From positions 310,001 through 374,000 of the forward strand of contig QPGO01000064.1 in NCBI GenBank assembly GCA_008632985.1: 64,000 bases of DNA. Direction: 5' to 3'. The notes under the pieces were generated by a model. The model saw only the letters and a program-made list of their open reading frames with translations. It searched no databases and was not told where the DNA came from. The translations under genes were made by a program, and so were the position numbers. Position 1 is the stretch's first letter. Each line of letters opens with the position of its first letter. The stretch comes from Psammoneis japonica. Taxonomy: Eukaryota. Shown piece by piece: positions 2,217 to 64,000 of the stretch.

Positions 2217-5200
2217 CTCTCCATGGGAAATCGCCGGTTTTGCCAATGTCTGCCTCGCGCACCAGGTGCAGGTTTGTCTGCTGCTGCTGCAGCTGGAAAC
2301 CTTGCCATCCACCCAAGTTTCTGAAGGTTGACTGTGGGTGTTTTCCAACACATCACAAGATTGAGAGCCACCGCTGCAGCCACCACCACAGCCGCTGCCC
2401 TCTTGGGAGTTGTGTGCATGTGACAAGAAGGAAGCTGAGACAAGAAGAGAACAGCGCCGGCAGCCAAGCTCACAAAGAGGTGGTTGGCATGCCAGCCTGG
2501 AGGTCAGGCAAGTTCCAAATGTGCATTTTGAGTCTGAAGTTGATGCCGCCAGCACAAAACCACCATGCAGCTCCGTCCCACTGCACAGCACTTGTTGTGT
2601 GGGCTGCGATTGCCACTTTTCTTTCACTGCGCGCAGGTGTCAGCACAAAACAAACGCAATGGAAATGAGGTGTTTGCAGCCATCAGTGACAAACAACACA
2701 GTCACAACCATCACACCAGCATGGCAACATGAACATGATGCTTTCTCAATGACAACACCTTCAAGAAGCCCACAACAATCTGATGAAAGATGCGACACAA
2801 AGTCACACACAAAAATGTTCAAAGTTCCAGCGAAATGGGCTTGTTGGGGGGGGGGGGGGGCTGCGGCAACCAACAAGGAACAGTGTCACAAGACAACATT
2901 TTTTCTTTTCTTTTGATCAAAAATCAAAAACACTTTTCAAAGTGTGCTTTGGCACTGACTTGTGAGTGACATTGACACCTGTTTTGTTCCAAGTCAAAAA
3001 ATGCAGCAAGGGATTGTCAGTGCCAACATTGTCTTCATGCTGTCACAGCACAGTGTGCCATTGTGCTGACACAGATGCTTTGTGCATGTCTGAGCAATTG
3101 CTCAAACTTGCAGCAAGTTTGAGCAATTTGAGCAAGAAATGGTCATGCCAGTTTTTGAGCAATTGCTCAAACTTTTAATTGGAAAAGTCAAAAGACTGGA
3201 GCTCTCAGTCATGACCATCAAACATTGCTTGGTGTGGCATTGGCTCATTTCCATTGTCATTTTGTGCATGCAGCCAAGTGTTTGAGCAGCAGTTTTCCCA
3301 CATGGTGCTGAGGATGCACACGAGCATTTTTGGCAAAGCCACAGACAAGAGGATCTCCAGAGCTTGCTTGTCCAGTGCTCCAGCGGATCCATGTGTCATC
3401 ATCTGGGTGGGGCCGTGTGACTTTCTCCTCTTTCTTGCCAGCACATGTGTTGTTTGCTGTTGCTGGTTTGCGGGAGCTCTTTGGCTTGTTGCTTCTGACA
3501 CTCTGGTCAAGAGCAAAGCAGAAAGGAGTGCAAGACTGTTGCAAATGGCCCTCATCTTGTCTCACATTTTGAATTTTGTGAGATGTTTTTTTGGCCCAAG
3601 CTCAGACACAACAGTGTTTGTTCTGCTCAAGTGCAGAGAAAGTGGAAGAAGTCATGCTCTTGCTGAGAAGGTTTTGCCCGCCAAGTGTGCCTTGGAAGAA
3701 AAACAGAGAGCCAGCCAGCCAAGCCCCCCGGCAGAGTGCAGTGGCAACCATTTTGAGCTCACTCAGGGTCACTCATTGTTCTGCATGCTTGCAGCAGCAG
3801 TGGGTGCTCTCTTGTGTGGTGTGTGGTGTGTGGTGTGTGGTGGTGTGTGGTGTGTGCATGTGCAGGAGAAGCTGGAGCGCTGTTTCTCTTGGTTTTGGCC
3901 TTTTTGCACTGGCCAAACCACAAGGAGATTTGTTGCATGCCCAAAATGATGTGCTCATGTCAGACACATGCAGCCAGCATCAGACTGGCTGTGTGTCCAG
4001 CCATCAGCCATGCATCTCCAGTGCTTGTTGCCCTCCATGTCACATGAGAAAGCATGCAACCATGCTCTCCTGTGCTGACAACTGGCAAATGCCGGCAAAC
4101 AGCTTGTGACCCAGCTTGTCACCACAGCAGTGAAAGACACATGGTGCAAATGCATGTGCCGCACACACTGCATGACTTGTGCCCACTCTGCAAGCAGATG
4201 TGTGTTGACGCTGCTCTGCACCAGCTGCAAAAAGTGAGGCCAAAAGGTTGTGCACTCTTGCTCAAAATTTGTGCTGGCTGAGCCCACAGATTGTGAGGAT
4301 GGTTGGGATGAACCATCTGGGCAAGGATTTGGTTGGGACAAGCTTGATGCTGTGCTGTGGGGCACAAGAGACAAGAAAGTGTCAGATTTGCAAGAACTTT
4401 TAACATCATGTGGAGAGGATGCCAAATGCACTCACCCAGGAAAGTCAACTGAGAAAGCACAAAGCAAGGGCTTCCAAGGCAGTGAGTTGTGACACAAAAA
4501 CAACAACAAAGACCAGCTGGTGCTTCACAAATCTGATGGAGTTGCTGTCCTGGCTGAGCTCCATGTTCTGTTCCTGTCACAAGATGAAGACCATGACACA
4601 AACAACATGTGTGCACTCACTGGGTGCAATTGTGGTGCCATCCACAGTGGAAGTGAGCTGAGTGGTCATGGACTCACACACCATGGTCATGACAGAGCAC
4701 TTCAAAAGTCAGCAAAAAATCTGCTTGTTGGTGTGATGCACAAATGACCAAGTCCACATTGGGAGAAGTGGCATTTTTGTGTTTGTTCGTTCAGCACTGT
4801 GCTGGGTGCAAGTTCAAGACGAAACATTGTGCACTGTGAAACATGCAGCTTTCTGTGCATTGATGACATTTTGTGTGTTTTTGTCCAGCAGCCAACTCAA
4901 CACATGTGAGCAAACACATGAAATCATCTGAAATGCAACCTCAAGGAAAACCACAACAACTGGCCAAAATCAGGCAAGAATCTTGTTGCGCCCACTGGCC
5001 ACCCACCCTGCAGCAAGGAGCAGGGTCAAACACACAGTTTCAACACTTGCTGCACAGCAGTGGGTTCAAGGCCCAAGACAAGTTTCCACTCCACAGGGGC
5101 CAGCATGTGCAATGCACGTGGCTGCAGCACCCCCCCCCAACAACAAGCCTGAGTCACTGCGCAACAAAGCATGTGCAGTTGACCAAACAGCGACAGGGGT

Positions 5201-7875
5201 TTGGCTGATGCAGCAAACAACAGAGAGCTTGTTGGAGGGCTTCATGTCACAAATGTTTTTTTGGCATGGGACATCTTCCATGCTTCTTTTTTTCTTCCTC
5301 AGATTGTGCAGAGGGGCTCTTCACAGCACTTGTTTTGCATTTTGGTGGTGTGCTTGAGTGGTTTTCTGGTGCACAGCTCACCCTCATTGGTGACACCTCT
5401 GCTTTTGATGGCCTGAGTTGTGCAAAAACTTTCTTCAAGTTTTGGCATGATGGACACAAGAGAGCAACATTGTGCTCAGCATTGTGGGTTGGAGGGGTGA
5501 CAAGCAAGAAGCCCAGAGGCCAAAGAGCAAGAGGTGGCCAAATGATGAGAGGAAATGCAGATCAATGAGTGTGACAACATTTCAAGTTTGTGGCCACTTT
5601 GGCACTTCACTTTGAGGCTGATGACCTTCTCAATTGAGCACTGAGATGCTGTCAACACTTTCATTCATTGCCTTTGCCTCTGCATCTCAAATGGCCGCTG
5701 GTTGCCCCACCTGCTTGTGTCACACTTTGGCTCATGATGCTGCATCAATGTCAGTGTGCATTTGACTCAAGCCTTTTGCTCAGGTTGGCTGATCAGCCAA
5801 TCTTTGAAACAGCCTTCATCGCACAAAATGCACATGCAAGGTCAGCTCCCCTGATTTCTCTCTCTCACACATGCACAAATGAAGCCAGAGTGCTGCTCTT
5901 TTTGGGCATGTGCAAACTCTTTGCACCATGAAGAAACTCAACAGGGTCATTTTTTGAAAACAGCCTGGCAGATTCTTTGATGGAAGAGACAGAAAAATGG
6001 CAAAGCCAAGGGAAGCAAAATGCTGCTGTGCAAGCAGCTTTCTTGTCATTTTGCAACAAATTGTGTTCCTGAGACTTCTTTCTGTGGCATGCTCCAGTGC
6101 CAGGCATGCACACAAAAACAACTTTGTCAAACTCATGTGTCATCATCAGTGTGCTTGCGCAACCATCTCAAATGTCAGTGCCAAAAAAGTTGGTGTTTTG
6201 CAAAGACTGCAAAGGGCTACATTTAGAAGCAAGTGCCCAAAGCAGCGCCCAACAAAACAACAAACATGATTGTCACACTGGTTGGCAGGGCTGCTCTCAA
6301 CCTTGTTTTGTTGAGAGTGATGCGCTGTTCAAGAGCTCTCAAATTTTTGTTTTTAGCTTGCTGGCACCACATTTCTCTTTGCTCAGCTCAGCAACCACAG
6401 GCTTGTGCTTGCACCACAGCAACTTTCAAGAAAAAAGAGTTTCTGCACCCTCTTCTTGGGGCCACCATTCTTTCCACAGCCATTCTAAAATTGTTTGACA
6501 CAAAAGCAACATCCCACTGCACTGAGTGCCAACCAGTTGCACCCAAACTTGTTTGCTTGATTGTTTCTGTGTCTCACAGATCTCCACTTCAGTGATCTCA
6601 TGCACCCTTTGTGTGCAGCAGCTCTGTTTGGGCATGCTGAAGTGTGCCGCAGCTCACTGAGCTTGTTCTTTTTGTCAGTGCACATCACTCCACACACTTC
6701 ATGATGTGTCAACTGGTACCACTTCTGCAGCTGCAAAGTCCAGAGAAGTTGCCAAAAACAACCACACACTGCCATGGACTTGTGCAAAAATGCTTGGCAG
6801 TCAACACAGAAAGGACAAGGATAAAGAAAGAAGGAGGAGATGGCAGATGGCAGAACAAGACAAGAAGTCAAGAAGAAGGCACTGAGGAGCCCCAGCCAAG
6901 ACCTCCAGAAGAAAGAGCACCCAGCTGCCCTTTGAAAAGCTGTCATGGCACATTGCCTTCAGATGCTGACAGGACAAATCAATTGGTCAACGACTTGTCT
7001 GGGCTCTGCAAGAAATCAAAAACTTGGTGTGAAAATCTGTTCTCCTTTTAATTGTAAAGCAATGCTCAGCAGCTCCTTGCACACACAATCCCAGATGCAA
7101 AACAGAGCACACAACATGTGCAAAAACCAAACAAAAGGCACAAAATGGATGGAGGGTGTGCTCTTGCATTGCTTTGCCAAGGGAGAGACAAAGACACAGC
7201 ATCTCAGCAGTTTGTCTTGCACCTCAACAACTTCTGCCCAGAATTGTGCCCATTTGTTGGACTTGCACTCAGCAGAAAGAATTTGATTGGATTCAGTGCA
7301 ATGTAATGGATGAGGTCACTGCAGCTGCAACGTGGGATGAATGAAGCAAATGCAAACACAGTGACTCAATGTGTCATTGCCAAGTGCCTGCATTCTCATT
7401 TTTGTCATTGGTTTGTTGCTCTGGAAGCCACTGTTGGGGAACTGGGAAAAGATGTGCACATGAAGCAACAACTTGCGGCTCATGGTGTGAGACAAGCAAA
7501 AAAGGAAATCAAGCACTGGCACAAAGCAGCAGATGGGTTGCTCAAGCACAAGACAGGAGGCTTGATTGTCAATCCTGCCTTTGCACGGAGACTCAAGAAG
7601 GTTGGTTTGGTTGTTGGCGGTGATCATGGCCAAGACATCTTTCATAAAACCCATCAAGCCAGCCCCTTGTGAGTGCCATGGGGTGCCTGCAACAAGGCAA
7701 CTGATGTCATGCAATGGGTCACAAGGGAAAGCATGGGAAAATCAGGCAGCAGTGCCCATGACATGCAACAGAATGAAGACATGTCAAATTTCTTGGTCAT
7801 GTCAAAAAGCAGAAACCGAGCCGCAAGAGGCAGGGAACACTGACAGTGAGGGCCTTTCTGTTGACAAGTTTTGAG
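2217..7875. mobile_element. Hypermutated repeat/TE-derived tract A (TpA- and CpG-depleted, TpG/CpA-rich)
   Basis: Only about a dozen TA dinucleotides seen by eye in ~5.6 kb; CG rare in the core; dense spurious Cys/His-rich ORFs in all frames; coding relic ...KKVGLVVGGDHGQ near 7600. Confidence 0.7.
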
Positions 7876-8525
7876 GTTAGATTTGACGGATTGTAGATGG
7901 AGTCACTCAAAATCTAAACGAGTCGTGTGACAAGAATTCACGATCGGAAGATTGTGCTTGCTGTGGCTGGAACAATGGTCGGTCTTATCATTGTATACAA
8001 GTAGCAAGGTGAAATGCACCATAGACAAAATAGACAGTGGGAGAATCCAAGGAGGTTCAGACAGTTCCTGTTCGCCGCATCATCGTCTAGCTGCTTTCAG
8101 CAGCTTTCATAGAACCTATTGTCATTTATACTCCAGCAAACTACATTTTCGTTTTTTACATTAAAAATTCAACCATAGAGCTGATGTTGTCTTTTCTGCT
8201 GCGTATAATACGTCTAAAAAGAATACTCATGCAGTTGCAGGTTAATCAACTTGATGGACGAGTGGATAAGTTGTTCTTCTAGCTCGTTCGTCCGAACACT
8301 TTTTTGCCCGCGTTCGCTCCGGCTTTGAGTCATTCAAAAATAGTTCATGTCGCGTCATCCTCGTTGTTGCTTGTAGAATCTCTTTTGTGGATATCTTATC
8401 GTAAATTCGTGGTATACTCGTCGCCATACGAAATTCAACCACCAAATGAGGACGTGTCGAAACGTGTGACAATTTGGCGAACTAGAGGTAGGCACCTGGA
8501 GACTGCTGTTTAAACTCTCAACAAG

Positions 8526-15929: not shown

Positions 15930-18307
15930 TTATTGTGCGTTCGGGTTGTAACAATAGTCTCTGCCAGGCTTGCCAGCTCCCATGCATCCGGGAATCTTCT
16001 CGCTGCCTGTTGTTGATAAAACATGAAACGCATTCAAATGAGTTACATCCAGTAGACGAGGTTTCATCCAGTAGGAAGAAGAAGAATAGAACATCTTACC
16101 ATTTCTTCTGAAGCATTTCAAGCCTTCTTTACATTCCCCATGATGGTCGCAGTCGCCTATAACCCGAGACAAGTCGGAAGTGGAAATGAGAAACCCTGCG
16201 CAAATGCAAAAGATTGTGACGAACAAGTAGGTCAAACGTTAACTCACCTTGGCACTCGTCCAAGGGAAAATGATGACCAGGGTCTCCGTTGTTCCCAATC
16301 ATAACGAGAACTCCCTTTGGGTATGGAACACAGTAGTCGACGTCGCCAGAGGGTGTCCCTGAACACAGTTGAGAAAGGTTGACAGAAGAATCTCCGTTGC
16401 TTCTTTCCAAGCAGTAGAGACCCGTTTGGCACTGCATATTGTTGTCGCAGTCGCCTTGGCATTCTCCGAGTGGAAACAAATCTTTGTTTGGGGCGTTGCC
16501 AACATATTTTAAAGGTTCCTTTGGCTCGGGTACATTTTCCAGTGGAGGTGGCAACACCGTTTGCCGAGGAGCACGAGGCTTGCGAGGTCTCCTTCTGTTC
16601 CTTTTCCTGCCTGGAGCACGAGTGGGCCCAGGTCCATCGTAGCAGTACCAACCCTTTGTGACGGCGTTCCCGACACAGCCTGGAACTTTCTCTCTTCCGC
16701 GTCGCTTGAAGCATTTCAAATTGCCTTTGCAATCTCTGTTTGAAGTGCAGCCCCTTGGCATTCACTGAGAGGAAACATACTTCGAGGAGGATTTTTCTGA
16801 TACCTTAGGCGCGGAAGAAGAAGAGGAGGCGGGAGGATTATGTTCACCGGTGGCGCGGGAGGGGGCGAAGCTCGAGGTGTGGGATCGGGACCAATAATGA
16901 TCTGTTCCAGCGACCACGTAGTCGGTGGTGGGGTGCTTCCAGGTGGAGGAGCGGGACTACTCCAAGTCTTTTCTTTCGTGTGCTTGCAATAGCCTCCTAC
17001 CTTGTCTCTGTACCTTCCGACTCCGACATCAATATCAAATAGTGTCCTGTTGGTCACAGGATCTTCTAACAATGTCACCTTCAGTGGCGGTGCTGAATCA
17101 CCGTCCTCAACCTCCACGTCCACCAAGTTGCGCACCGGAAATGGATTACTAACGCAGAAGTTGTGCCCATTACCATGAAAGTACATCATCGGGACGTCAG
17201 GATACAAGCCAGCCAACCTTGAGAACGGCGCGCCAAAATGCTTGAGCCTTGATCCTTCGTTGACTTGAGCATGAGCGAAAACAACCACCCCTTTCATACC
17301 AAGTACATCGTGAATTTTGAGGTTACGACGTACCCATTCCACGTTCTGACTGAAGCGCTTTCTTTCATCGCCGATTACGTCACCGCCGACGATATTGACA
17401 CCCATGTAGAGCACTTTGTCCTGGAAGAACGCAAAGTTTTCGTCGCGGGACCTGCCGTCAATTGTTTTGGCGTCAGTATGTCGACTCATCGTTGCCCCCG
17501 ACGTCAGGTTTCCAAACCCATATTTGTTTCCTGGTATAAAAGACAGGGTCATTGAGATGATGGCAAATGAGCAGTCTAATGTATCACTAAACACAGTAAG
17601 GTTCCCTTACCTGGTCCGAAATGTTCCATCCAGAGATCCCAGGCTTCATCAATGTCCTCGCAGTCATTCCTGTAACGGATTTCAAAGATTTTTAAGGAAT
17701 TGCTTCTTTCCAGGGAAATTCGCAGGAGAGATCATGCAGCTGCTTACCATTCATTGTCGCCTGGGACGAATAAGCAGTCGCGAGCATCGTAGTCAACGGC
17801 ATTGTTTGAGTGGGAGAATATTTCAGCAATATCACTGTATGCTTCGCGATTGCATGGATACTCTGGTTTACCAACTTTGATATCTCCGACATGGACGATA
17901 AAAGATGGCGAGCCCGGTGATTTCAGGTCAAGCTCGCGTAGCCTGATGGATCCAGGCAAGCAGGAAAATGAATGTCAGGGTGCGAGTGAGTAAGAGGATC
18001 GAACATTTCCCCTTTTCCATGGTTATACAATACTACTGGGTATTCAAACAGTATCTATCTTCGTACTTGTACGGAGTGTCGCCCATTCCGAAGAAGCTAG
18101 TAATCGGTACCGGTTTTACGCCTGCAGGAAACTTTGGTAAGTTGTCAATAGTGCATTCTGATACCAGCCTTCTAGGATGTTCGTCGTCCCCTGCGCATCT
18201 ATAGAGGTTTTCATCATTGGTGTCCGACGGCTCTCCAATTCGCTGTCCTTTGGTAAGGACCGCACAAGAAAAGCAGAAATCGCCGCGACATAGTCATGAA
18301 ATTTCAT
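15930..18307 (-). CDS. Secreted calcineurin-like metallophosphoesterase fused to Pro-rich linkers and three frustulin-type Cys-rich (ACR) modules (paralog 1; multi-exon, frameshifts)
   Basis: GDTPY, HVGDIK, VPGDNEW/NDC, VVFAH and YFHGNGH metal-binding motifs; ACR modules ECQGDCDNNMQCQTGLYC and ECQ/GDCDHHGECKEGLKC; several GT-AG introns. Confidence 0.8.
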
Positions 18308-25244: not shown

Positions 25245-25689
25245 CTTGCTGATGCAGAGAGACCTTAGAGGAATTGAAAATACTGATTTATTGACTCTTG
25301 CAAGCAGCGGTTACTCCAGTATGGGAGGAAAAGATAATGTGATGGATTGCCCAAGTACGAGAAAGTAGTTTGTGATTTCTGATGTCATTGCGACGAAACA
25401 TTATGCGCGGTTCGCTTCTTTGCTGTTTCTGATGACATTTTGGAGACATTATCGAATGAAAAAAATTATCGACAGACATTGAAATATTTTTAATGAAGGT
25501 ATGGCATTGACATCAAGAAATGTCCCATTTATTTAGGGACGTTTCGTGGTACCGTTTCGACATTTCATGGTTGATCCCGCGCTCACATTATTGCCTGGAG
25601 GAATGCACCCTGTTCTCGAATACACAGGTCTACGACTGCGGTAACTCGACTTACGATGAAAGGAAACGAGGTTTACTTATCTGTCTCGA

Positions 25690-28600
25690 ATCCCATGTGA
25701 ACATGCTGACATGCATTTGAGAATGCATGCACCCGCGCATCTGTTTGACATGTGTGCAGGCGATCAATCTGACAATGATTGTTGTGACACCCCACAAACT
25801 GTGGATGCCGTGCATGTCCTCCGTGACAACTTTCTTTCGCTTGTCTCCTCTCTCGCATTCGCCTGTAGAAAACACCATGACTGACAACACTGATTGGCGC
25901 AGAAGCACAGAATGTCAAATGACTCGGAGTCTTGCCCGTGAGTTTGCAATCTGGAATCTTCCTTGACCATTGAATGCCGCACATGTGGCAAAGACATTGC
26001 CCAACACAGATTTCAAAGGTTCAGAAGTTTCGCTGTAAAAAGTGGGGAAGCTGTTGTCAATTCGTAAAGTGCACCAGCAACAAATGGGTGCAACTGTCTG
26101 CAGTCACTGGATCTCTTGTTCATGCAGTTTGATGTGTGTTGATGCAACAAGGAGATCTTGAAGTCTTGAAACCTCATCTGTTCTAGACGCTCATCTTCCA
26201 ATGGAAATCTTGAAGCCAAAGCTCAGATGAGTTGGACATTGGAAGCGCAGGTGATGAAATGCTCGCTCCACAAATTCACCCCTCGCAAATGGAAAATCAA
26301 TCTGGCATCCCTTTAAAATGCTCCTTTTTGCACCCCTTTTTTTGCACTCTTCTTGATCACGACTGGGAATCCAATGATGACCCTACATTGTTGTGTGGCA
26401 TTGGTCCATGTTTTGATTCTCCAATGGTTGCAAACCCTTGCCCTCATGAATGAACAGATCCCGGGAACCGCTGACAATGACAGCAACGCACTGCTGTGTG
26501 AAAAGATAAAATCATGTGTTGACAGCCATGAAACGGACTGCCAACCAGCCCTGCATCAAAACAAAACCAAAATTCCATCTTTAAAGTGCTGCTGCACTTC
26601 CACCCCGCAACTCCAGCAACAAGCTAACCCACACCCCCAGCGCACTGACAGCACGGCAGGAGCACACAACAATTGGCCAGGATTGGCATCACCCGCAGGC
26701 GATGCCGCGCCAAAGCAACTTGCGACAGCTCAAGTTCCGCGTGCAGCCAGACGCTTGGCTTCTTTAATGCTCGACTTGAACATTGGTTTGACCACAGCTG
26801 GCCAGTTTCAAATGCGATGAGTGGAGTGTGTGAGATGTTCTTCAACCGAGTCGAACAGTTGTGACCTGTCGTTTGCAAGACATTCGTCTGATCTTGAATG
26901 GATGGCCCGAACCTCTGCCTTGGCGTCTCTCCGCTGGGATGACTTCCCAGTGTCCGAATCGTGGCCATGTGCATCGTCATTGTGAGAGTCCCACAACTCC
27001 CACCATTGCTCCCAAATGTAATTGCCAACCGTTGCTGCCCAGTCCAAACGCCGCTCTTTGTCCGAAAGATCCTGATGCAACCCACCAGATGACAGGCAAG
27101 CTCGCTGCGTCTCGTTCCACTCGCGGGAAAAACGTTCACCAAAGATGAGCCTCCAACCAGTGGCATCCTGGGATCGGAGTGCAGCCACTGCACTCCTGTG
27201 AAGACCATCGGAACACATGATTTCCTCTCGAAACCATGTCTCAATTGATGAGATGATCAAATCACGGATGGATGGGGATGTGTGAATGTCGTCGCACTTT
27301 TTCCGCAGGCCTTGTAAAAACTTTCTGCGCCATTCTTCATTGTGGGGACACCGCAGAATGTGATCCCGGTCCTCCATTGGATGCTGGCAGTGAGCGCAAC
27401 AGTCGGGCCGCACCGGATTGTGCCGGTGGACGATTTTGTCAGTTGGAAGTAAATCTTGGTCCAACTTGACTGTGCTCACCTTTCTTCCAATGTTTCTTGA
27501 CATCAATCTGGAATGCACTGTCCAATCGATAGACTCACAAACCACATCAGACCACCCACACTTGTCTTTCATGCATCCAATGAGTGCAGGACTGGATGCC
27601 TCGAAGCGGAGAGCAGGCTTGAATTTTGAATTTACAGTCGCATTTTGAACGACCAAATTTGCCATGCAATGAGGTGTCCTGGGGGCCACCAGTGCGTTCG
27701 ATGAGCATTTTCCGTGATGTCGACCAGCTGGCATGTCCACACGCACATTCAGTTTAGCTGGCAATGACAGCAATTCGAAAGGGACTTCATCGTCTTGATG
27801 CCCTTTCACCCAATGGACATCGACAAAAGTTCCGGAAGACTCTCCAACAGAACAGCTCGAGATGGCATGAGCAGACTGGCACATTTCATGCAACAGATCC
27901 CATTCTGCTGATGAGGTGTTCGCCACGTGATGTCGTTGGTGGCAGTCGCGGACTTGGTTGGATTCATCTAGATCGTCTGGCAAGGGAGGCACTGCTGCAA
28001 AGTCCACAATGTGCCAAATCAATGAAGAGTTGTCGCAATGAAGATCAAATCCGAGCGGAAAAATCGATTGACAATGTTCCATCATCCAAAGGATAAATCG
28101 TAATGTGGGTGAGACACCGCACACTTCAGCCCTGTATGAAGATGGATGGAAACCGAACATGGGGCCAGCACAATCCACCAAAGGCACACCTGAAATTGTG
28201 AGGGTCCATCCAAAGGTGCCCTGAAATTCGACAATTGATCCGTCACTGCCAACAGAAGCACGTGATGACTGGAGACACTCAACAATCTCGAATGTCGACA
28301 CATGTGCAGCAATGTCTGTGAACAGGGAAGCCTCCCAATGTGGGAGCGACCGCAGCATCGCCAAGAAATCATTCGGAACAGGTGAGTGCACAGGAGCCGC
28401 AGTGGGAGATGCTGCAGAAGCTGATCTCCAACGGCCATCACTCGCAGCAGAGACCATGACGGGAGCAGCCAAAGGGGACAAATCATGCAATGTCTCCAAC
28501 TCAGAGACGGATTCCGCGCAATTGTCTTGCATTGGAAAAACCTGAAAACCGGAGTCAGTCTGAACATGCAAGCAATCTTCGGCTGGTTCGCAGCATGCCG

Positions 28601-30130
28601 GGCAGGCCATTCGCATGTCCGAAGAGGGAACAACCCACTGTCCCAATGGACCTTTGAGTTTCGTCGCATTCCCCACACACAAAAGTGAACAGAACCGCTT
28701 CCATTGCTTCCATGCACATGCAGACGGGCGTTGTTGCTCTGCTGGGTTCAACATCGACACTCCGCTGACAAGAGACTGTTCGCCCTCCAATGTGCATCGA
28801 TCGACAGACCGACCATCTGGAAGAGCAATGTCCAAAAACAGTTGAGACATTGAGGTGCAATCTGCAATGGTTTGCCCACCTGACCTCGCGATCTGCAAAA
28901 ATTCCCGAGTCCAAAACCACATCCATGACACATTGGTCATTGTCTCTCTGCAGCAGAAGGGCGCCAGTGTTGTCAAAGTCGATGCAGGCATTCACTCTTG
29001 CAAGAAATGATCACAAGGACACAAACCATTTTGACTCTGCGTGAGGTGGTTTCGAAGTCACGTCATGGAGGAAACTGATGCCCGCACCCAAATGAAACTG
29101 AATCCAAGAGATGGCAATGTGGGACATGGCCTGTGGTTGACCCAATCTGCTCCAGTGTCATGAGAACTGCAACACTTGGGCGACACCTTGCTCCACATCT
29201 AAAGAACGAAATCCTCCTCCACCCAAGGAGCATGGCCCGAACAAGACATCGTGCTTTGTGCTCGATCATGTCCGCATTTTGCGACGATGACATGCACTGC
29301 CTTTTGTTGAATTTCCAAAAGTTCCTTCGGAAGAAAGTGTGCATTTGGGAGAACGCAAGTCATGGAGGACAAGTGGCAGGCAAAGCAATGGGTCCAAGCC
29401 TCGTGTCGGTCTAACGGGCAGGATCGAGGAACACGGCAATGTCATCGCTTTTCTTCTTGAGCACCGAATGTTGCATCTTCTGGCTGCCAATGGGAGCTTT
29501 GTAGTCACCCAGTGTTTTGTGGGACGAGCACGCAGAAAGCTGTTTGCTCCGTCGGCTGGCGGTCCTGTGTCAGCAGGTGCAATCTCGATGATGAGTTCGT
29601 CATCACAAGGTCTGAGACAAGGCTCACCGTTGTCTGCAAACATCCATTCGATGGCGTGAAATGAACATTTGGGCAATTCCAGTTCATGGCCTGCAGCGTT
29701 CAAGAGATTGCACCACAATTGATCATCCTCTTGCATTTTGAAAGCAAGTTCAAGCATGCAAGGCTGAGGCGATGCGCGAAAATCGTTGACTTGTTTGGCC
29801 GTCCCGAAAATTGGCAACTCTTCAGAATGGGAGCAGGATGTTGGAGACAATCCGAGGACCGTTTTCAACCAGCAACGAGCCTCGTGAAGGCGACTTGGGC
29901 AACCTTCTTGGGCATGCCGTTGCTGCGGTTCTGGCCGCGACTGGAGAACCAGCCCTGCATCAGTTGTCAGGTGACGACGAATCACTGGGGCATGCCACCC
30001 CAAGAGAGTGCGCGCGGACGAGAGAGATGCAACAAGACATCATCCACCCATTTTGCTCCGATGACAGCAAGTGCAACCATAATTCGGCAGCAATCACCGC
30101 CATGGCGTTGAAGTCGCCTCGATGGTGCCA
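25690..30130 (-). mobile_element. Degenerate, 5'-truncated non-LTR retrotransposon (diatom Ambal-like LINE: RT fragment, RNase H, C-terminal zinc knuckle); TpA-depleted tract B
   Basis: ORF 26808-28991 has RNase H motifs SDGS..GTFGW, SYRAE, HCDNSSL, HWVKGHQDD and LNVRVD, the zinc knuckle CAHCQHPMEDRDHILRC, and QDATGW/WEQWWELW. ORF 29266-30003 has RT-like pieces SHSEELPIFGT and QLWCNLLNAAGHELELPKCSF. Confidence 0.85.
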
Positions 30131-30380
30131 GAGTTCGGGAATGAAGGGGGCAGTACATTTTTACGGTTTTTGGTGGCGGATACGCAGCGAGAAACTTCAA
30201 TTGTTCAGTCGTGACACGACGTCTGTACATGGCACGCATTGTTCTTCACCTTCACTCATTTTTTCGTCGCGCTCACGCACTCACGTTCTTCGCATCACAC
30301 AACATCACCACAAGAAGAATAAGCATTTCCTTCTGATCCGGTATTGCGCATAATAAAGGCAAGTGCTGAATAAAGAAATC

Positions 30381-33266
30381 ATGTCGTCACTAATGCGACG
30401 AGGTATATGGCTAAGTATTCTAGTTGCCACAACGAATGCCTTTCTGTCTCCTGCTGGTCGGCAATCTGTGGCACGCAAAACCTTTCTCCTGACAACACTG
30501 TCACCGCACACCGTGTTGCTGCTGTTACTCTTCCGGTAGATGCAACATCTTCCACTGAACAGCCCACGAGTTGCTTTCCTACCGACAATGCGTGGGAAGT
30601 TCACAAGTTTGGAGGAGCGAGTTTGGCGACCGCTGAATTATATCGAACTGTTGGGGACTTGCTTGTTACGGAAGCCTCGGATCGCGGTGAGGGTGCCATT
30701 CCAACCATGGCTGTGGTATCTGCACGAGGTGGTATGACTGACTTGCTGGTCAAAGTCGTGGACAGTGCTTGATTGATTTGACTGCCGCCGAAACCGCTCT
30801 GGAAGAGGCTGTTGAATCGCAGATTTCTGTTCTTCAAGAACTTGCACCAACCGACATTACTGCGCCAATCGAGGCGAGTTTCAGGCAGGACGCCAAAGAC
30901 ATATTGTCGGTGGTTCAATCTCTACGCATGTTACAAACTGTTCCTCCGGTTACAATGGAAGTTGTGACGGGCTTTGGAGAGATTTGGTCAGCCCAGACTC
31001 TCGCGGCCTATCTAAGGACGGTTGTCGATGATTGCAAGTGGATTGATGCTAGAGATATTCTCATTGTCAAGAGCAGCTCCGAAGGGCTTGGCGAAAAAGG
31101 TGAAGCATCTACTGGTGGCGTTACTCCACTTTGGGACGAGACTACCATCAAGATGAATGATTGGTGGGAGACAAATGCCGCCGAATCCCCAATTGTCGTT
31201 GTTACTGGATTCGTTGCCAAGACTGCCAATGGTGTACCAACCACATTAAAGCGGTCTGGGTCTGATTACAGTGCCACTATTTTTGCCAAGTTAGTTGGAG
31301 CCAGTCGGGTAACAATGTGGAAGAACACCAACGGAGTTTACACGGCGGATCCAAGGGCCGTACCGGATGCCTTTCCCATTGCATCGTTGAAATAGTACGT
31401 TTCTGTTGGTGTCTTCGTTTTTATTCCCACTTGACGAAATCTAACCTAACTCTTGCCTTTCTTCTGTTCAGTGATGAAGCCATGGAGCTCGCTTACTTTG
31501 GAGCACAGGTGCTGCATCCCTCGGCAATGGTCCCTTGTATCGAAGACGAAATTCCTGTGTATGTTCGAAACATTTTCAACCCGTCGTTTGAAGGCACGGT
31601 AATTCAGGGTCGCTCCAAGACTCTCGGGGAAGTCATGAAGGATGCGCAGATCAAGAATTGGCGTTCCAAAAGTGGAGAAATTCCCATCAAGGGTATCACG
31701 TCTGTCGAGAAAACTGCTCTTGTTACGTTGGAAGGCGCCTCCTCTATTGGAAATGTCGCCGCTCGGTTCATGGGAGCCATGGCAGATGCCGGAATCAATG
31801 TTCTCATCATTACACAAGCAAGTAGTGAGTCATCCATAACTGTAGCAGTTCCAGAAAACCAAGGGAAAGCTGCTATAGCAGCACTTAAAGATACCTTCGA
31901 GCTAGAGCTGGCACGCAGTACTGTCGGTTCTTTGTCTCTAGTGACTGGCATGAGCATTGTTGCCATTGTTGGTGAAGGTATGGCGTTGACATCTGGAGTG
32001 TCATCAACCTTTATGAGCTCCTTGTCGCGTGCCAATGTGAACATCCGCCTCATTGCTCAAGGATCTTCGGAGCGCCAGATTGCGGTTGTTGTCCAGGCCA
32101 GTGACGCGTCAAGAGCTCTGCGAGCCGCCCATCAAGCCTTTACTTTATCAGAAACTGTAGCAAGCGTTGCTCTTTTGGGCAGCCGCGGCTATGTCGGTAG
32201 TGCTTTGTGTAACCAGCTACGATCACAAAAGAAAAAACTCGCAGAAGATTTGGGAATCGCGGTTTCTGTCAATGTCGCAGCGTGTTCATCTACCATGGCT
32301 TTTTGCAAAGATTCCCTCGGTCTAGATATTGGTAGTCTGTCCGAACAGTTGAAGAGCCAAGACGCAGTAGATTTTGATCTGGATAAGATAACGTCCATCA
32401 TGGCTGCCGATGTGAACCCGCTAAGAGTCATTGTTGACTGCACAAACAGTGATGAGGTAGGAGAATACTATGAACGATGGTTGGCTTCGGGTATCTCGAT
32501 TATCAGTCCCAGCCGCAAGGTTGCTTCGGGAAACCTTGAGCGTTACCAACGTGTTTGCGAGGCCGCCAGAGAAAGTTCTACAAATTACTTTATGGAGAGT
32601 AGCGTCGCTAACGCGCTTCCCATTATCAGCACTCTGAATGATCTCCTTGAAACAGGCGACTCCATCAAGACAATTACGGGTGCCCTCTCTGGAACAATGG
32701 CATACGTACTCAGCACCTTTTCTGAAGATCTGCCTTTCTCAAGAGCAGTTCGGAACGCTATTGAAAGGGATATCCCGGAACTCGATTTCCGTGTTGATTT
32801 AAGTGGACTGGATACAGCGCAGAAAGTAGTAATCTTGGCGAGACAGGCAGGTTTGGACGTGAGCGTTGAGGATGTAGAAATCGAGAATATTGTGCCCGAG
32901 GAAATAATGTCAAAGTCCTACGGAGGAGACCAGCACGACGAAATGATTGAAGACGTAGAGAAGCACATGGATGGGCTTATGCAGGAAAAATTCAAGGCAG
33001 CCGAAGAAGCTGAAGGACGACTTCGCTACAAGTTCTCCATTGATCTCGAGACGGGAAAGTGCAAATGCTGGCTAGATACAGTGTCAACTACTGATCCTCT
33101 ATTCCGGCTGAAGAAGAAAGAAAATCTTGTTGCTTTCGAGACAAGTCGATATGAATCCTCTCCAATGATTGTGAAAGGAGCATCAGCTGGTCCAGACCTG
33201 GCGGCGGCAGGCATATTTGCCGACTTGCTCCGTCTGACACGGGCTTACGCATCGAATCAAGGCTAG
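30381..33266 (+). CDS. thrA: Bifunctional aspartokinase/homoserine dehydrogenase, plastid-targeted
   Basis: Presequence MSSLMRRGIWLSILVATTNAFLS; VHKFGGASLA, VVSARGGMTD, TTLKRSGSDYSA, GVYTADPR, EAMELAYFGAQVLHP; two ACT domains; HSDH motifs VIVDCT, ESSVANALP and DLSGLDTAQKVVILAR. Intron 31395-31471; frameshifts at ~30480 and ~30770. Confidence 0.95.
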
Positions 33267-46149: not shown

Positions 46150-49100
46150 GGCATTTGAAGCCTCATGGAAACTTCAAACGATGCCAAAATAAATGATGAC
46201 GCGAGATCGTTTCGAAAATTGAGAGCGCAGAGTGCCGAGCACCACATCATTTTCAGTTGCCTGCAATGATGGATGATGGCATTGCTGCCTGAGAGTCATC
46301 GAAATGAGTTTTTTGATCCCCCACAGCTGCGTGCAGCAAGAAGCAGGCCGGTTCTTCACACTGCCAATGTTTCAGCACAAGAATGTCCCAACCTCATTGT
46401 GCATTTTCACACAACCAGACAAGTGTTAAAAGGATGTGCACATGCCGCACTGCTCTTGTGGACACTTTGGCATGTCCGCGCGCATGGCAAGGGCAAAAAG
46501 CCAGCCCAAGTGCCTCATGTGCTGTGCGCACATGTCTCTGACTTCTCATTGTCAAGCTTCAGCACAACTCCAGTTGTCAGAGAGCAGCATCAATGGCCAA
46601 GTCAGCAAGGGACACAAGAGCCCCCTGTGAGCTGGCAACAGTTGTTGAGCCAACAAACCCAATGTCATCAAAAGGGAGCTCTCTGAGGTTTTTCCTGTGC
46701 TGCTCGTGGGTCTGACCTCATCATCCACAGAGTTCGCTCATGCTGCAGACAGTCAGGGTCAACAAAAAAAGAAACCATGTGGGGCAATGCAGGGGGGCAA
46801 CAGTGTCTCCAAAAAGCCTCCAACGCGGCAGCAGGGGGGATGTTGTGTGTCTCTGCTGACACAACTGGGTCTTGAACAAAAAGGTCACCAGCACCAGTTT
46901 CCAGCACAAATCTTGCAGATCATTCAAGTCTTGAGTCAAGAACAAATTTGTCAATCAACAAACAATCAAAGTTGAAGGGACACTCAGAGGCGAGCCACTC
47001 AAAAGTTGTCAGGCAAGATGAGGCTGGGGGTGGATGCTCGCCATGGGAATGGCGTGATGCAGTGCAAACGAAAAGAGCAACAGCACCCCACCAGACAAAA
47101 CAGCACCTCGACCACATTTTACTTACCCCTGGTGAAAAACACACCAGACAAAGAAAATGCCTCACAAATGTGCTCAACATTGAAGGAACATGAAAGCAAG
47201 TTGACTGGGCATTGGAGAATGTTCAAATCTTGCTTGGTCACCACAAACAACAAGGCATCTTGGTCAAATCTTGAATGCTCAACAACTTTGTTGACTTCCT
47301 CCACTTTTCCATGTTGTCAACCCCTCCCCTGATCAGGAGCCACAGGGTGATTGTCAGCAAGAATGGTGGTTGGTGGTTGGGAGCATCATGAAATGTGAAA
47401 CACACAACATGTGCCAATGGTCTGGACAGGAGCAGAGTAAAAAGGCTGTGTGGTGGAAGAGGCAATGATGCTCAGCAGCCCTCTTTCTCAGCTGCCCTGC
47501 TTTTGCTGGCCTTGTTTGGATCTTGTCCAGATGATGGAAGGAGCGGCAACATGGTTTGCCAAAAACTGACAATGGCTGAGCAAAATTCTGAGTGGCTCTG
47601 CAAGAAAGTGACCTGGCAATCAACATGTCAGTGGCTGCATCCACAAGCATTGTTGTGTGACAGCATTGCTGAGGCACCAAGCAGCTCAGGTGCAGTCTCC
47701 TTGCCAACACAATGTGATCCATTCAATGGGTGGATGTGACCATCATTGCATGGAACAACAGAGCCACCAGAAAGAAAAAACTTTTTTGGGGGCTGGAGCA
47801 AGCTGGCATCACATGAACATCAGTGGAAAGTGCTGCCAATCAGGTGGACAAAGCACCAGAGAGCCGCTGCCAATCTCTGCAGATGGCTCACTTGCAGGTG
47901 CCGCAACAGATGCAGCAGACTTGACATCCAGTGAATTGGCACTTGCAGGATCCATCTGAACACCCACAGACAAAAAAAACAGAAAACAAAAAAGCTGACT
48001 GGTGTGGTGCACACATCTGTCACAGTCACCAGAAGGTGAAGCACCCTGGCTGCACCAACCTTTTGCACGAAGGAGGTCACACATGCCCTTGTCAAAGCAG
48101 ACATGTGTTCAGCAATCATGACCTGAGAGGTTTCAAAATCATGCCAAGGGACACTGCCTCTTGGCAGCACAACAAAGAAAAATGATCTCTTTTTGATGTT
48201 GGGGCACAACATGGCATGGTGGAGACTGGGCTTTTGGACCCAAACATGACACACAATTTCAACTTTTCAAGTGGTCTTGATGGTGGGTGTGAGCCATGTC
48301 ATGATCTACAGACACATGAAAGATGCAGCAGAACCTCCAGAAGGTGTGCTGGTGGCCAGCAGGTGACATGGTCTCTGACAAGAAGCCCTGCAAAATCTTG
48401 GCTGTGGAAGCACTGCACCACACCACATTTGAGCTGCATGTTGTTCATGCTGAGGTCAGTGGTTGCATCCATCACAGACACCACAAGGTGAACAAACAGC
48501 CTGACTGTGCAGATCCTTGGATGCAGTGGACACAGCAGCACCTCTCCAGAGCACCTGCTGGTGGCCACAGCAAGAAGTGACAAAGGGCCTGACAAGGAAC
48601 CATGTGATGCCATGACAAGATCATCAACATGATCCAATGTGGGGTTGCATCTGCCATTGGAGGGTGGCACAAGTGCTTTGACCAGTCATGTGCAGCATGT
48701 CCTTGGGGGTGCAGCATGAGAGACTTGGGAGCCTCGTCAAAAGCACAGGGACTTGACACATCATCCTCACATGGTCCTGTGACACAAGATCAGACATTGC
48801 AGGTGTTGACAGAGGAATGTTGCCCAATGATGGCAGAGACAAAGATGATTGTTTGGGTGCTTGTGGCTCAAGGGCAAACTTGCTCCAGCCCTTGCAGCTC
48901 CACTGCATGTGTCAGAGTTGAAGCATGTGTGCTTCATGCCAATTGTGCAGTGGCCGCCATTGCCTCACAAGCCTTGAGAGCAATTTGGATCTTCTGCTCA
49001 AGCATTTGTCTTGAGAGGTGAGATGGCATGGAGTCACCACCCACTGGAGACTGCACTTTGAGAGCAGCTTGCCTGAAGACTGAGTCAGTGCCTGCTGCAT

Positions 49101-49230
49101 CCTTGGGGTTCTGTGTTTGAGACAGGAAAAGCTCATGAAGGCCGTGGCCCCTGTCCTTGGCCTGGGTGTGTTTCTCGTCTTTAGAAAACTGATCCAGGTC
49201 AAGAATTGTTTCGCCGCGAGTGCTGCTCAG
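46150..49230. mobile_element. Hypermutated tract C (TpA/CpG-depleted), probably TE-derived
   Basis: TA nearly absent, CG rare in the core, TG/CA-rich, spurious Cys/His-rich ORFs; no recognisable protein family. Confidence 0.6.
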
Positions 49231-57039: not shown

Positions 57040-58700
57040 AATTGAAGGAGCAGCAGTCGAGTCAGCGGAGGAGACCTGGACGTGGCGACGGCCCTCGAGA
57101 TTGTGATTGGTCTGAAGAATGCAATTGCAATCAGGCGTTTTAAGGTCTGCAGCGTGACAAACAAGAACAGAAAGGAGGTGTCGTGTCAAGACGATCTTGA
57201 ACATATGTTGCATGAGCACATTTGTCATTGCAACTTTGTGAGTTGGAAATCCAAGGTTCGAGAGGATTCTCTCTGAACAAAGGAGCAGTTGGTGGTTCTA
57301 TGTTTCAAGACAATCTTTGTGCACTGCATCAGAGTGGCTGCACATCCTGCAAATTTAGGAGCAGGAATCGAGTGTCGGGAAGCGTGACGAGCAAAAGAAT
57401 GAGATGCTGTCGAACGTTAAAAACTTGTTTCAAAATGCATCAGTTCACATCCCTGACTGTGTGACTGGCAGTTGGCTTTGTCAAGCTCTTTCTAGAAGGC
57501 AGAAGAGCTCAGGGAATTAGCACAAAATGTGTTGAGAGCAACATCGGCAACTTGCGCCATTTGAGCATTGCAGGAAATCGATTTGTGCATCATGTTGAAA
57601 GTGCTGGGAAAATCTCAAAACCATTCTGCAGCTGCTGCAGTGCAGTCCTGCACGTTCGTGCCATTCCAATGCTGGTGCCAAATCAAAGGAACTTGGTTTT
57701 CTTTGGTTGTGCCAAGACGACACTGTCACCAAAGGACAAACCATCTTTAGAAATCACATTCTGTGACTCAACGCCAGCAGATCAATGAATGTGCACAGGT
57801 TTCCTTCAATGATCAACTGTGGGCAACCCTCTACAATGAATGCTCCACACAGCACATTTTCTGGAGTTTTGCTCTCTCCAAAGCATGCTTTTTTTTACTT
57901 GGCTCTCTCACATCTTGGTGATTGGCATCATGCATCAGAAAGCCATTCTGTTGCAGAAGGATCATGTCGTTGGGCTCTCAGCAGGGACTCTGTTGTTGTT
58001 CTTTGCATCAGACTGAGGACCAAGCTGCGCACAAGAAAACAGAAATGTCTGGGGCTGCACATGCCATCTTTCAACAACAAAGAGTCCCTGCTGCAATGGC
58101 AAACTGACACAAACAGACATGAGACATCCTCAAAGTTGCTTTTCCCACCTTGTGCTGATGATGAAAAACAATGCAGTGACAGCAGCAAGCAACTTCCTGT
58201 GGTTTGAGCCTTGCACGTTCATCAATGCCCACCCCATCATGTGGAATTTCTGCTGTCTTATGCTGCACATGATGGCTGCACAACACATGAGGCTGCGTGC
58301 TGCAACCATGACCTTCCGATGGCAGGGAGGAGAACAAGACATTCAATTTGACGCTGAAGCCATTCGCGTCTCGTCCACCCACCCCCTGCCTCTCTCTTCG
58401 AATGTTGATCCAGTGACATTTGACATTTGATGGAAACATGAGAGGGTGCATCTCTTTGGACTTTGGGAATGAAAAAGCAATGGAAATTTCACTCCGAAGT
58501 GTGCATTCTTGGATCGTCAGAATTGCCGACAAAGTCATGTGTCATGCGCACAAGCTGTTCACTTTGGGACATCTTCTCGGTTCAGAGGGGAGTGCAGTTG
58601 AAGCAAGAGGAACAGGCAACCACATTCTAGTGACTGCTATGAAGTACACCATATTGGTCTTGCCAACGAAGAAGCAAGAAGCTCCGACCATCCACACCAC
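57040..58700. mobile_element. Hypermutated tract D (TpA-depleted, partly CpG-depleted)
   Basis: Few TA dinucleotides, TG/CA-rich; CG survives at the left edge. Confidence 0.55.
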
Positions 58701-61929: not shown

Positions 61930-64000
61930 TGTGGGCAACGCATGAATGGCTGCAACAAATGAGAAGGAGCGGCTGCAATTTTTCACACTAATGCTGTGTG
62001 GTGCCGGGCGTGCCCTCCTGCTTCTTCATCTGGCTGCTCAAGCAGAGACCTTTTTCCCAACAAGAGCCCACCAAATCACAACAACGCCAACACAACTCCG
62101 CTTGCTCACATTGTGCACAGCTCTTTTCAATCTCAACAACAAGACCCTGGCACAGCAGCTGTGGCAGTGTGGTGCTCAGCCACTCTGCTTTTGCACCATG
62201 ACTCTGAGCCTCTCCTCTCCTCCTGCCACACCACCACACAGTGCACTGCCACATGGCAGCTCCTTTGACGCACATTTGTGCTTGACAAGAAGTTCTGTCA
62301 ACAAGAAACAAAAGTTTTGCACATGTGGTTGGACTCTCCACAGGTGTTGCAGTTCTTCAAAAACCAACCAAGGTGGCCACTGCAACCCAAAAGCACTGAA
62401 TGATGATGTTTTGACACTGGCTCATTTTTAGCCACAAATCTGGTGCTGTCGAAGCTCTCAGTGTTGGGCTGACAGTTGATTTTTTCCAGTGGTCATGGAT
62501 TTGCAATGTTTTGTTTTGCAGCCCAGCATCTCATTCAGAGTTGATTCATTTGTTTAGAAGAGCATTGGTTTGTGGTTCTTCCCCATTGCATTTTTTTGTT
62601 TTCTGCTGCATGTTTGTCTCTTTGTTGCATCATGCACCACGAAGCTCAGCTGCCAACCCATTGTTTGCACAACAATGGCACACCCCTGTTACAATCTGCT
62701 GCACCCTCATCACATGACTGACAGCAACAAAAAAAACTCTCCTTTTGAAATGAGCTTGTCCAACCGAGCCACCCTCCGTTTGCGACAGCAGATGGCACAG
62801 TGTGCAAACTTCTTGCTGAGCTCTTGCTTTTTTCTTTGCACCCAACATCAATTTGCACTCCAGAGCCTGACTCACAATGTCAAGCAGCCCCCACAAAACA
62901 GCCATGTCATCATTCAATGTTTGTCATCATTCACACTTCCTGCTGCTGTGCATGCTTGTCAACTCACTTTTGACCTCATCATCACAGTGCAATTTGACAA
63001 ATTCTGACATCAATCCAGATCTCACAGTGTGGGTCAATCTGTGCCTCATTCAGCACCACTTTCAAGCTGCTGATTGATGATGAAGGTGCTGCAAACACTT
63101 TTGGGGTGCCAAGTCATCAGGGCCAAGTTGGCTGCAAAATTGTTTGATTTGGTGTTTTTGTTGTTTCGGGCGGACCATGCACTTGCACACTCCTGCACTC
63201 TGTTTTGGCTGTGGCAGGGAGCAGATTTCTGCAAGTGCACACCAAATCATGTCTGCTGTCTGTGCAGCTCTTCTTTGTTGCCCTGTGAATGCACGAGCTG
63301 TGTCTCTCTTGCAAAGAACCGCAGAGAGTCATTCAGAAGCCATGCTTGTTGAAGTGCTGGTGTGCCAACTTGGAGAAAAGGATGAGAGGGCTCTCTACAA
63401 AACCAAGACTCCAGGACCTGGGCCACATGAGTGGCAGTTGCAGCAAAAGCTTTGGTGACAGAAAACTCATTTGGTGTTGAAACTTCATGCAAAGTTCAGC
63501 ACAGACAGACAGATGGCAGCAGCAGCACATTTCAACAACTGCATCATCAACAAAATTGGCTGCGATTTCTCACTTGACAACTCATGGCAGGAAAGCTTGA
63601 GAGACAAGGCTGCAAGCCTCCAAAAAATGTGTGGTGTGCAATGAACAAAGCTTGGTTTCATGTTTCTGACTTGTGCCTCAGCAAAGCCTCTCTCGCAGGA
63701 TCCGTTCTTGCTTGAACTTTGGCTCATGATGAAATGGAAGAGATGGCTTGCCTGTTCATTGCGCTTGTTTCAAAAATGCCACTGCAAATTTCTCCACTTC
63801 CCTCAAGCCATTTTGCCAGTGCAAAACAAGTCCATGTCTCTGGCACTCCTGGCATGCTGCATGCTGAAGTTTTGCTCACCCACTGCCGCTCAGCAACCAA
63901 ACCTTTGAATGAGCCACTCTGTGAAGTTTGGGAAGTCAAACCCACTGCTGTTGGGCACAGCCAATTCCACTGGATCAATCTTGCAATGCTTGGCCACAGT
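61930..64000. mobile_element. Hypermutated tract E (TpA/CpG-depleted), continues beyond the window
   Basis: TA and CG both rare, TG/CA-rich, spurious Cys/His-rich ORFs. Confidence 0.6.

Follow-up and report, generated by a model that had tools for sequence, protein, structure and literature searches.

The window analysed here is a stretch of 64,000 nucleotides (64 kb) from the diatom Psammoneis japonica (contig QPGO01000064.1), in which positions are counted from the first letter. Next to protein-coding genes it contains five sharply bounded blocks, A to E, which are confined to non-genic DNA, make up 25% of the window and are strongly depleted of the dinucleotide TA. One of them, block B, harbours on its minus strand the remnant of a long interspersed nuclear element (LINE) with an open frame of 727 amino acids (aa), and the loss of TA from this element, which went to TG and CA on both DNA strands, is the subject of our analysis (Table 1).

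A first-pass annotation made from the letters alone had pointed to the interval 25690-30130, in which TA was said to be rare and CG still plentiful. The dinucleotide count bears this out: the 4,441 bases contain 24 TA (observed/expected ratio, O/E, 0.09), 197 CG (O/E 0.69), 427 TG (1.69) and 450 CA (1.48). Within the limits of block B, the 24 TA compare with ~187 expected from the background of the rest of the window (Poisson p 4e-51), which without the five blocks has O/E values of 0.60 for TA, 0.98 for CG, 1.14 for CA and 1.13 for TG; the neighbouring genes lie at 0.56-0.57 for TA. On the left side the number of TA per 300-base bin runs 15, 12, 12, 15 and then falls to 1 from 25679, and on the right side the bins hold 0-3 TA up to 30178 and then 13 (~30179), the normal run beginning with the TA at 30154. 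Neither AA nor AT is depleted in block B, and the latter led us to reject N6-methyladenine at ApT as a candidate cause.

The element was delineated with a 1,937-position profile, for which 38 full-length relatives were used. The copy in the window is without positions 1-833 of this profile and matches the remainder in four pieces, and the profile finds a match in block B only, none in blocks A, C, D and E. A profile search with the 727-aa frame and three distant homologues had returned 19,695 proteins at E<=1e-3, the longest of which, among the matches listed, measure ~1,800-2,200 aa. While the 727-aa frame itself and relative P0004 gave no match to Pfam, relative P0005 carries an Exo_endo_phos endonuclease domain (PF03372, 27.7 bits, cut-off 24.5) and relative P0002 shows RVT_1 at a sub-threshold 25.5 bits (cut-off 29.6). 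Judged by the profile match and the domains of its relatives, the family is very probably an apurinic/apyrimidinic endonuclease (APE)-type LINE, as the annotation had supposed for the remnant, and the window copy is dead and 5'-truncated. LINEs are characterised by variable 5' truncation, a lack of terminal repeats and many dispersed copies, and the copy agrees with this: it starts at profile position 834, self-comparison of the window, as DNA and in a transition-blind alphabet, found no repeats flanking it, and run X1 suggests tens of copies or more. Among the 848 contigs of run X1 that aligned to the window, the central part of the tract is covered at high summed depth, and diverse loose contig ends and the end of paralogue similarity at 26557-26580 were taken as the 3' end of the LINE family. 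At the protein level, a near-length search for close paralogues gave 3 distant matches only, and a shorter-length search and a scan of viral contigs gave none.

Table 1. Position and dinucleotide content (O/E values) of the TA-depleted blocks and of the LINE remnant in the window
Feature	Coordinates	Strand	Remarks
Block B, tract flagged by the first-pass annotation	25679..30140	no strand	TA 0.09, CG 0.70, TG 1.68, CA 1.48
Segment left of the LINE 3' end	25679..26560	no strand	TA 0.11, CG 0.51, TG 2.04, CA 1.43
Segment right of the LINE profile match	29890..30140	no strand	1 TA, TA 0.09, CG 0.85
High-copy part of the tract in run X1	26403..29873	no strand	summed contig depth 237-5,730 vs 56-57 in unique flanks
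LINE remnant, 5'-truncated, frameshifted	26712..29889	-	positions 834-1932 of the 1,937-position profile
LINE pieces	29566-29889, 29259-29551, 28837-29283, 26712-28832	-	best piece E 4e-143
727-aa open frame, C-terminal half of the LINE	26808..28991	-	2 Tyr, 33 Cys, 36 His
Block A, unclassified	2217..7950	no strand	TA 0.04, CG 0.16, CA 1.92, TG 1.87
Block C, unclassified	46190..49190	no strand	TA 0.04, CG 0.17
Block D, unclassified, milder	57400..58700	no strand	TA 0.12, CG 0.37
Block E, unclassified, continues past the window end	61989..64000	no strand	TA 0.04, CG 0.17

The poverty in TA is not a trait that the copy shares with its family. All 80 environmental (metagenome) loci of this LINE family have a TA O/E of 0.43-0.93 with a median of 0.66 (medians for CG 0.92 and for TG/CA 1.20), and none of the 1,188 windows of 600 bases in these loci falls below 0.2; hence, TA poverty is not the composition of the family. 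This inference is mirrored in the encoded protein, which had been described as poor in Tyr and rich in Cys and His: Tyr accounts for 0.27% of the 727-aa frame compared to a mean of 3.33% and a lowest value of 1.79% in 153 relatives, Cys for 4.53% (mean of the relatives 1.84%) and His for 4.95% (4.31%). We further compared the copy with the 246 profile columns in which the majority residue reaches >=50%, of which it retains 173 (70%). Its 13 consensus-Tyr columns hold 1 Tyr, 5 Cys, 4 His, 2 Phe and 1 Asp, so that the Cys and His residues that the annotation had placed at family Tyr positions are found at 9 of the 13 against real relatives. Among the columns with a majority of >=70%, the copy retains 104/120 overall and 0/3 Tyr. 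When set against the 128 of the 153 relatives with enough aligned columns, its overall retention is ordinary (0.70, mean 0.73), its Tyr retention is 0.08 (mean 0.63, minimum 0.17) and its rate of Tyr>Cys/His replacement is 0.69 (mean 0.064, maximum 0.31). The protein is no more diverged than those of the relatives, and by these comparisons the copy is an ordinary family member except at TA-bearing codons. The Pro of the DMPAG motif, for which Leu had been expected, falls on profile position 1592 with the codon CCA and is compatible with CTA>CCA.

The direction of change follows from the 74 codon differences between the copy and the consensus. Eight of these are TA>TG single steps, eight are TA>CA and three are of the CpG type, with the remainder divided into 8 other transitions, 28 transversions and 19 multi-step changes. 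In 20 of the 80 environmental loci used as controls, the 1,444 differences comprise 50 of the TA-type and 51 of the CpG-type, which yields an odds ratio of 7.7 (p 2.5e-8) for the TA-type excess in the copy; where several single-step paths were possible, TA-type took precedence in the controls as in the copy. TG alternates with CA as the outcome along the element, and therefore both strands were hit repeatedly and independently. The TA loss is thus directional, A:T>G:C at TpA, on both DNA strands, just as the annotation had read it from single codons.

A loss of TA accompanied by a gain of TG and CA raises the question of its relation to the decay of methylated CpG. As CG still stands at an O/E of 0.70 in block B, the TA loss does not stem from CpG decay, and the earlier argument that deamination of 5-methylcytosine (5mC) cannot account for it holds. 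Starting from the family medians, the TA and CG that were lost predict by simple arithmetic a TG/CA O/E of ~1.60 for block B, and 1.58 is observed. Assuming an ancestor with the family-median composition, TA survival is 0.09/0.66 and CG survival 0.70/0.92, from which we roughly estimate ~2.0 hits per TA site and ~0.27 per CG site, a difference of ~7-fold. The TA loss is a process separate from, and overlaid on, the slower CpG decay. Biased gene conversion was rejected as a candidate cause, since it would raise the GC content generally and the five blocks have a GC content of 0.47-0.51.

Across all five blocks the TA O/E is 0.04-0.12 and that of TG and CA is 1.48-1.92 (1.7-1.9 in blocks A, C, D and E). 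The sequence of the depleted blocks is complex and does not consist of simple repeats. When 130 frames of the five blocks were searched against Pfam, nothing meaningful emerged; the output was two sub-threshold rows at chance level, which are also all that the 51 frames of block A yielded. Self-comparison of the window as DNA revealed no similarity of the blocks to each other, nor did a comparison in a transition-blind purine/pyrimidine alphabet. The oldest blocks additionally show secondary shifts, with AT down and GC up, which may be the product of TAT>TGT, ATA>ACA, TAC>TGC and GTA>GCA. The left edge of block A adjoins a gap of 187 N (2030-2216), and directly left of this gap we observed an inverted repeat of 44 bases with 97.7% identity (1731-1774 / 1986-2029).

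The 51 TA that survive in the five blocks are not a random sample. When the base 3' of the A is scored on both strands (102 cases), it is A in 45 of 102 (22% outside the blocks) and T in 8 of 102 (28% outside), with a chi-square p of 1.4e-8 for the 3' base. TTAA makes up 7 of the 51 survivors compared to 85 of 2,006 TA sites outside (p 0.007). TAT may be a good target and TAA a poor one, or else TAA arises anew more often; an extended site preference of the mutator is possible.

The contigs of run X1 that lead from unique flank into the tract reproduce its TA-poor edges. At depths of 50-57 they match the window at 25679-26010, 26070-26445 and 29843-30140, with 8 differences in 24000-26010 (2,011 bases), 5 in 26070-26445 (376 bases) and 12 in 29843-32000 (2,158 bases), and in the bridged regions they bring back TA at two tract sites only, 30063 and 30091. 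Contigs this long, deep and nearly identical to the window argue for accurate reads. The same-locus differences between window and run X1 are ~3 times denser in the tract (12 in ~1,000 positions) than in the flank (13 in 3,539; p 0.005). Ten of the 12 tract differences are transitions from one pyrimidine-purine (YpR) step to another, among them TG/TA at 30063, CA/TA at 30091 and two TG/CA doublets (25770-1, 26343-4), each of which implies that a single ancestral TA or CG was struck twice independently.

The annotation had further supposed that repeats are the target. This is seen for 26403-29873, which is high-copy in run X1; in the ~720 bases of 25679-26402 the TA-poor tract outlasts the high-copy part at single-copy depth (bins 25602-26402 in run X1). 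Both segments beside the LINE are mostly at single-copy depth, and a single run X1 contig joins the right one to the unique flank. The left segment is either an older unrelated fragment or a sign of the process spreading; it has a strand asymmetry between TG and CA that no other part shows. Just right of the tract, a patch at 30422-30541 gathers 6 of the 8 flank differences of the window from runs X1 and X2 together with two small insertions, and contains, no more than 5 bases apart, a TA/TG difference and a doublet of TG/CA. A hypervariable promoter, leakage of the process and an error of the assembly are all conceivable origins of this patch.

The genes around the blocks encode a sigma factor, a light-harvesting protein, pyruvate carboxylase, a kinesin and an aspartokinase-homoserine dehydrogenase, a set of the photosynthetic stramenopile nuclear type. 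The last of these has its closest named relatives in Nitzschia inconspicua (66%), Seminavis robusta (64%) and several diatoms of the MMETSP collection; the best match of all, outside these named ones, is at 74%. A contig of run X2 skips a 77-base GT..AG intron in this gene (31395-31471), and run X2, labelled 'DNA?', therefore looks like RNA; it has no contig on the tract and no bearing on its expression. Two diverged paralogous genes at 16132-17902 and 22538-25310 share 70-78% DNA identity over short stretches. Their products contain Cys-rich CxGDCD-type repeats and Pro/Thr-rich linkers, and in the Atlas they come closest to a cluster of calcineurin-like phosphoesterases, a family that is commonest in diatoms; the motif is reminiscent of the ACR domains of diatom frustulins. 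Directly right of block C, a 378-aa frame on the minus strand (49614-50747) carries the ADP-ribosyltransferase domains PF03496 and PF01129.

In its overall interpretation, a mutator directed at TpA in transposon DNA, the first-pass annotation stands in substance; its view that no pathway erasing TpA has been described does not, and the phenomenon is not unprecedented. In a preprint, Mettrop et al. report TpA>TpG/CpA hypermutation that arose de novo in the integrated viral DNA of Bigelowiella natans (bioRxiv 10.64898/2026.01.13.699255). According to its main text, 231 of 302 nuclear point mutations in mutation-accumulation lines fell into two integrated viral regions, at ~6e-7 per site per generation or ~1,000 times the background, and nearly all of these were A>G or T>C, these all at TpA. 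The same source counts 124 clusters of low-TpA, high-CpA+TpG windows in the B. natans genome, describes an enrichment of reverse-transcriptase, endonuclease-reverse transcriptase and DDE domains among TpA-depleted coding sequences, and proposes, as a proposal only, an ADAT2-like protein as the enzyme (bioRxiv 10.64898/2026.01.13.699255). The signature of the tract is the same, and it probably reflects the same kind of process.

We consider it probable that a host process deaminates adenine at TpA, on either strand, in transposon or foreign DNA that is integrated and probably silenced. The hypoxanthine formed from adenine pairs with C, so that each event would turn TpA in place into TpG or CpA by an A:T to G:C transition at the A of either strand. 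Its rate would lie far above that of ordinary mutation and several-fold above the decay of methylated CpG, and the tract would represent a dead LINE copy with adjoining fragments from which ~86% of the expected TA was erased. In the reading frames such a process would produce changes of Tyr to Cys or His, of Leu to Ser or Pro and of Ile to Met or Val, and would also act on TA that spans two codons, with the frames staying open; by the genetic code TA>TG/CA cannot make an in-frame stop codon, which is why the 727-aa frame is still open. In older blocks TA and CG would both be lost and TG and CA accumulate, up to an end state of nearly TA- and CG-free sequence with about doubled TG and CA. As enzyme, a TadA/ADAT2-like deaminase recruited to silenced DNA appears most plausible, and the process may serve as a defence of the genome.

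The sharp edges would equally be expected if the element's own nucleic acid alone had been edited before integration, either as LINE RNA (A-to-I at UpA) or as first-strand cDNA, and then fixed in the genome. RNA adenosine deaminases prefer a 5' U, as the B. natans preprint notes (bioRxiv 10.64898/2026.01.13.699255), and few of the listed differences by which the window departs from its paralogues are TA-type. Editing of the sense RNA would, however, give sense A>G only, and in the copy 8 T>C lie interspersed with 8 A>G on the sense strand; the equal effect on both strands favours action in place over this route. Furthermore, the TA-poor tract reaches ~720 bases beyond the high-copy part, the four other blocks bear the same signature without any retroelement signal, alleles of the single insertion differ at TA/TG and TA/CA sites, and the documented precedent, as far as the preprint describes it, works on integrated DNA. 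We therefore regard editing before integration as improbable. Deamination of adenine could also be replaced by another chemistry in situ, namely a modified thymine (5-hydroxymethyluracil or base-J-like) that arises at TpA and pairs wrongly with G, or error-prone repair of the Pol eta type in heterochromatin. From sequence, an A>G change cannot be told from T>C on the opposite strand, and the losses of both kinds end as TG or CA. Thymine hydroxylation favouring TpA occurs in some protists. A Pol eta hotspot at WA predicts a loss of AA, of which there is no sign (O/E 1.12-1.30 in the blocks vs 1.17 outside), our literature searches gave no precedent for near-saturating T>C from thymine modification, and the B. 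natans authors favour deamination in their preprint, with the ADAT2-like protein as candidate. Such a chemistry seems to us a poor bet as well.

An explanation without any mutator would be that the LINE lineage and the other blocks evolved an avoidance of TA, for instance as an escape from UpA-cutting nucleases. The open 727-aa frame would fit this view, and at the best-supported sites listed the run X1 paralogues share most of the window sequence. The frame is expected to be open in any case, since TA>TG/CA makes no stops, and the copy is truncated and frameshifted. As Tyr is replaced in 12 of 13 conserved columns, beyond the range of the 128 relatives, as every one of the 80 environmental loci has a TA O/E of at least 0.43, and as non-coding parts are depleted to an equal degree, we hold this explanation to be very unlikely. 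Scarcely credible, finally, is an artefact of sequencing or assembly, in which modified bases in silenced DNA are miscalled and TA and methylated CG are read as TG or CA. Modification would be expected in just such DNA as the depleted blocks, the window contains the 187-N gap, and its sequencing technology is unrecorded. Against this stand the run X1 contigs, whose sequence accords with that of the window over 25679-26010, 26070-26445 and 29843-30140 and in which TA is restored at only 2 sites; their differences are mostly transitions, common to run X2 in the flank and unlike error noise. The same signature was, according to the B. natans preprint, validated in that alga by Illumina mutation-accumulation sequencing.

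Several observations speak against adenine deamination in integrated transposon DNA as we propose it, or narrow its basis. The origin of blocks A, C, D and E is unclassified, so that the link to transposons is observed for block B alone. No deaminase was found among the 56 frames scanned outside the blocks in the window, a genome-wide search not having been made, and the independence of run X1 from the assembly is likely, not proven. Allelic TA-type polymorphism is not specific to the tract, since TA/TG or TA/CA accounts for 3 of the 13 differences in the flanks as well (25320, 25622 and 30422, the window having TA at each). The comparison with paralogues covers the best-supported 40 of 1,332 variable places; at the 15 listed in-repeat sites that set the window apart from almost every paralogue contig, one difference is a window-private TA>TG (29162) and five are CG>CA. 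With one such site in 15, much of the TA loss may be common to the copies and could predate their spread. The timing after integration thus rests on few allelic differences whose direction is unpolarised, and what we see is a footprint in which no de novo mutation was observed.

If the probable reading is correct, the footprint extends the erasure of TpA to a second major lineage of the Stramenopiles, Alveolata and Rhizaria (SAR) and to ordinary retrotransposons, near saturation, and this kind of genome defence may be widespread. One may go a step further and suppose that a DNA adenine-deaminase defence directed at TpA is active and heritable in diatoms and that it is either a homologue of the one inferred in Bigelowiella or has converged on it; it would be an old, at least SAR-wide means by which eukaryotes disable transposons and integrated viruses, would stop within tens of bases of the element edge, would outpace 5mC decay and would erase TAT most readily and spare TAA and TTAA; in this full form we put it forward tentatively, as an idea to pursue rather than one we expect to hold throughout. 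The phenomenon is now placed in a group with genetically tractable species, and comparative gene-content profiling for deaminases that co-occur with the signature could nominate the enzyme. For annotation, the process renders transposon copies invisible to domain searches, creates long spurious open frames through the disappearance of TAA and TAG, and inflates Cys and His.

Compared to known systems, the tract resembles B. natans most closely. In both, TpA alone is hit on either strand with TpG and CpA as products, and the long-term footprint is one of little TpA and much CpA+TpG in clustered windows; in our window, the TpA-restricted loss is matched by the gain of TpG and CpA, and the change is A:T to G:C on both strands. 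The two cases differ in that B. natans is a chlorarachniophyte (Rhizaria) and the host here a diatom, and in that de novo mutations were seen there in mutation-accumulation lines and a footprint alone is seen here. The giant-virus region of B. natans has a Rho TpA of 0.45, whereas the O/E values here are 0.04-0.12, and here the loss is recorded in a LINE and overlaid by CpG decay. The main text of the B. natans preprint makes no mention of diatoms, stramenopiles or CpG, our literature searches found no diatom report of a TpA-erasing signature, and the accessible text of the Phaeodactylum mutation-accumulation paper (PMC6604790) describes context effects and no such hotspot.

Like fungal repeat-induced point mutation (RIP), the process riddles repeats with context-specific transitions on both strands within sharp limits and kills transposon genes. 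RIP, however, changes C to T at CpA, creates TpA and makes stop codons, whereas TpA is destroyed here and stop codons cannot arise. As RIP predicts an excess of TpA and a deficit of CpA/TpG, and TA O/E values of 0.04-0.12 with CA/TG at 1.5-1.9 were seen instead, it was rejected as a cause. Deamination of 5mC at CpG likewise lets a YpR step decay to TG or CA, plainly so where CG has an O/E of 0.16-0.37 (blocks A, C, D and E) and mildly at the 0.70 of block B, but it cannot remove TA, and the TA loss of block B (to 0.09) far exceeds its CG loss. APOBEC3 hypermutation is similar in leaving a context-specific, deaminase-type burden fossilised in retrotransposon copies. APOBEC enzymes deaminate C on minus-strand cDNA and thereby cause G>A on one strand, unlike the A:T>G:C changes at TpA on both strands found here. 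TadA, in turn, has UACG as its target. A-to-I editing by ADAR or ADAT/TadA shares with the tract that A is read as G and, as the B. natans preprint notes for RNA adenosine deaminases (bioRxiv 10.64898/2026.01.13.699255), that a 5' U/T is preferred; it acts on RNA and on one strand, whereas both DNA strands are affected equally (8 vs 8) and heritably here. RNA-level A-to-I editing fixed by retrotransposition, which predicts A>G without T>C, was rejected because the sense strand of the copy carries T>C as often as A>G (8 each). With TpA hypermutation itself already reported in B. natans, what appears to be new in this comparison is its occurrence in a diatom, its action on LINEs at near saturation and a possible extended site preference.

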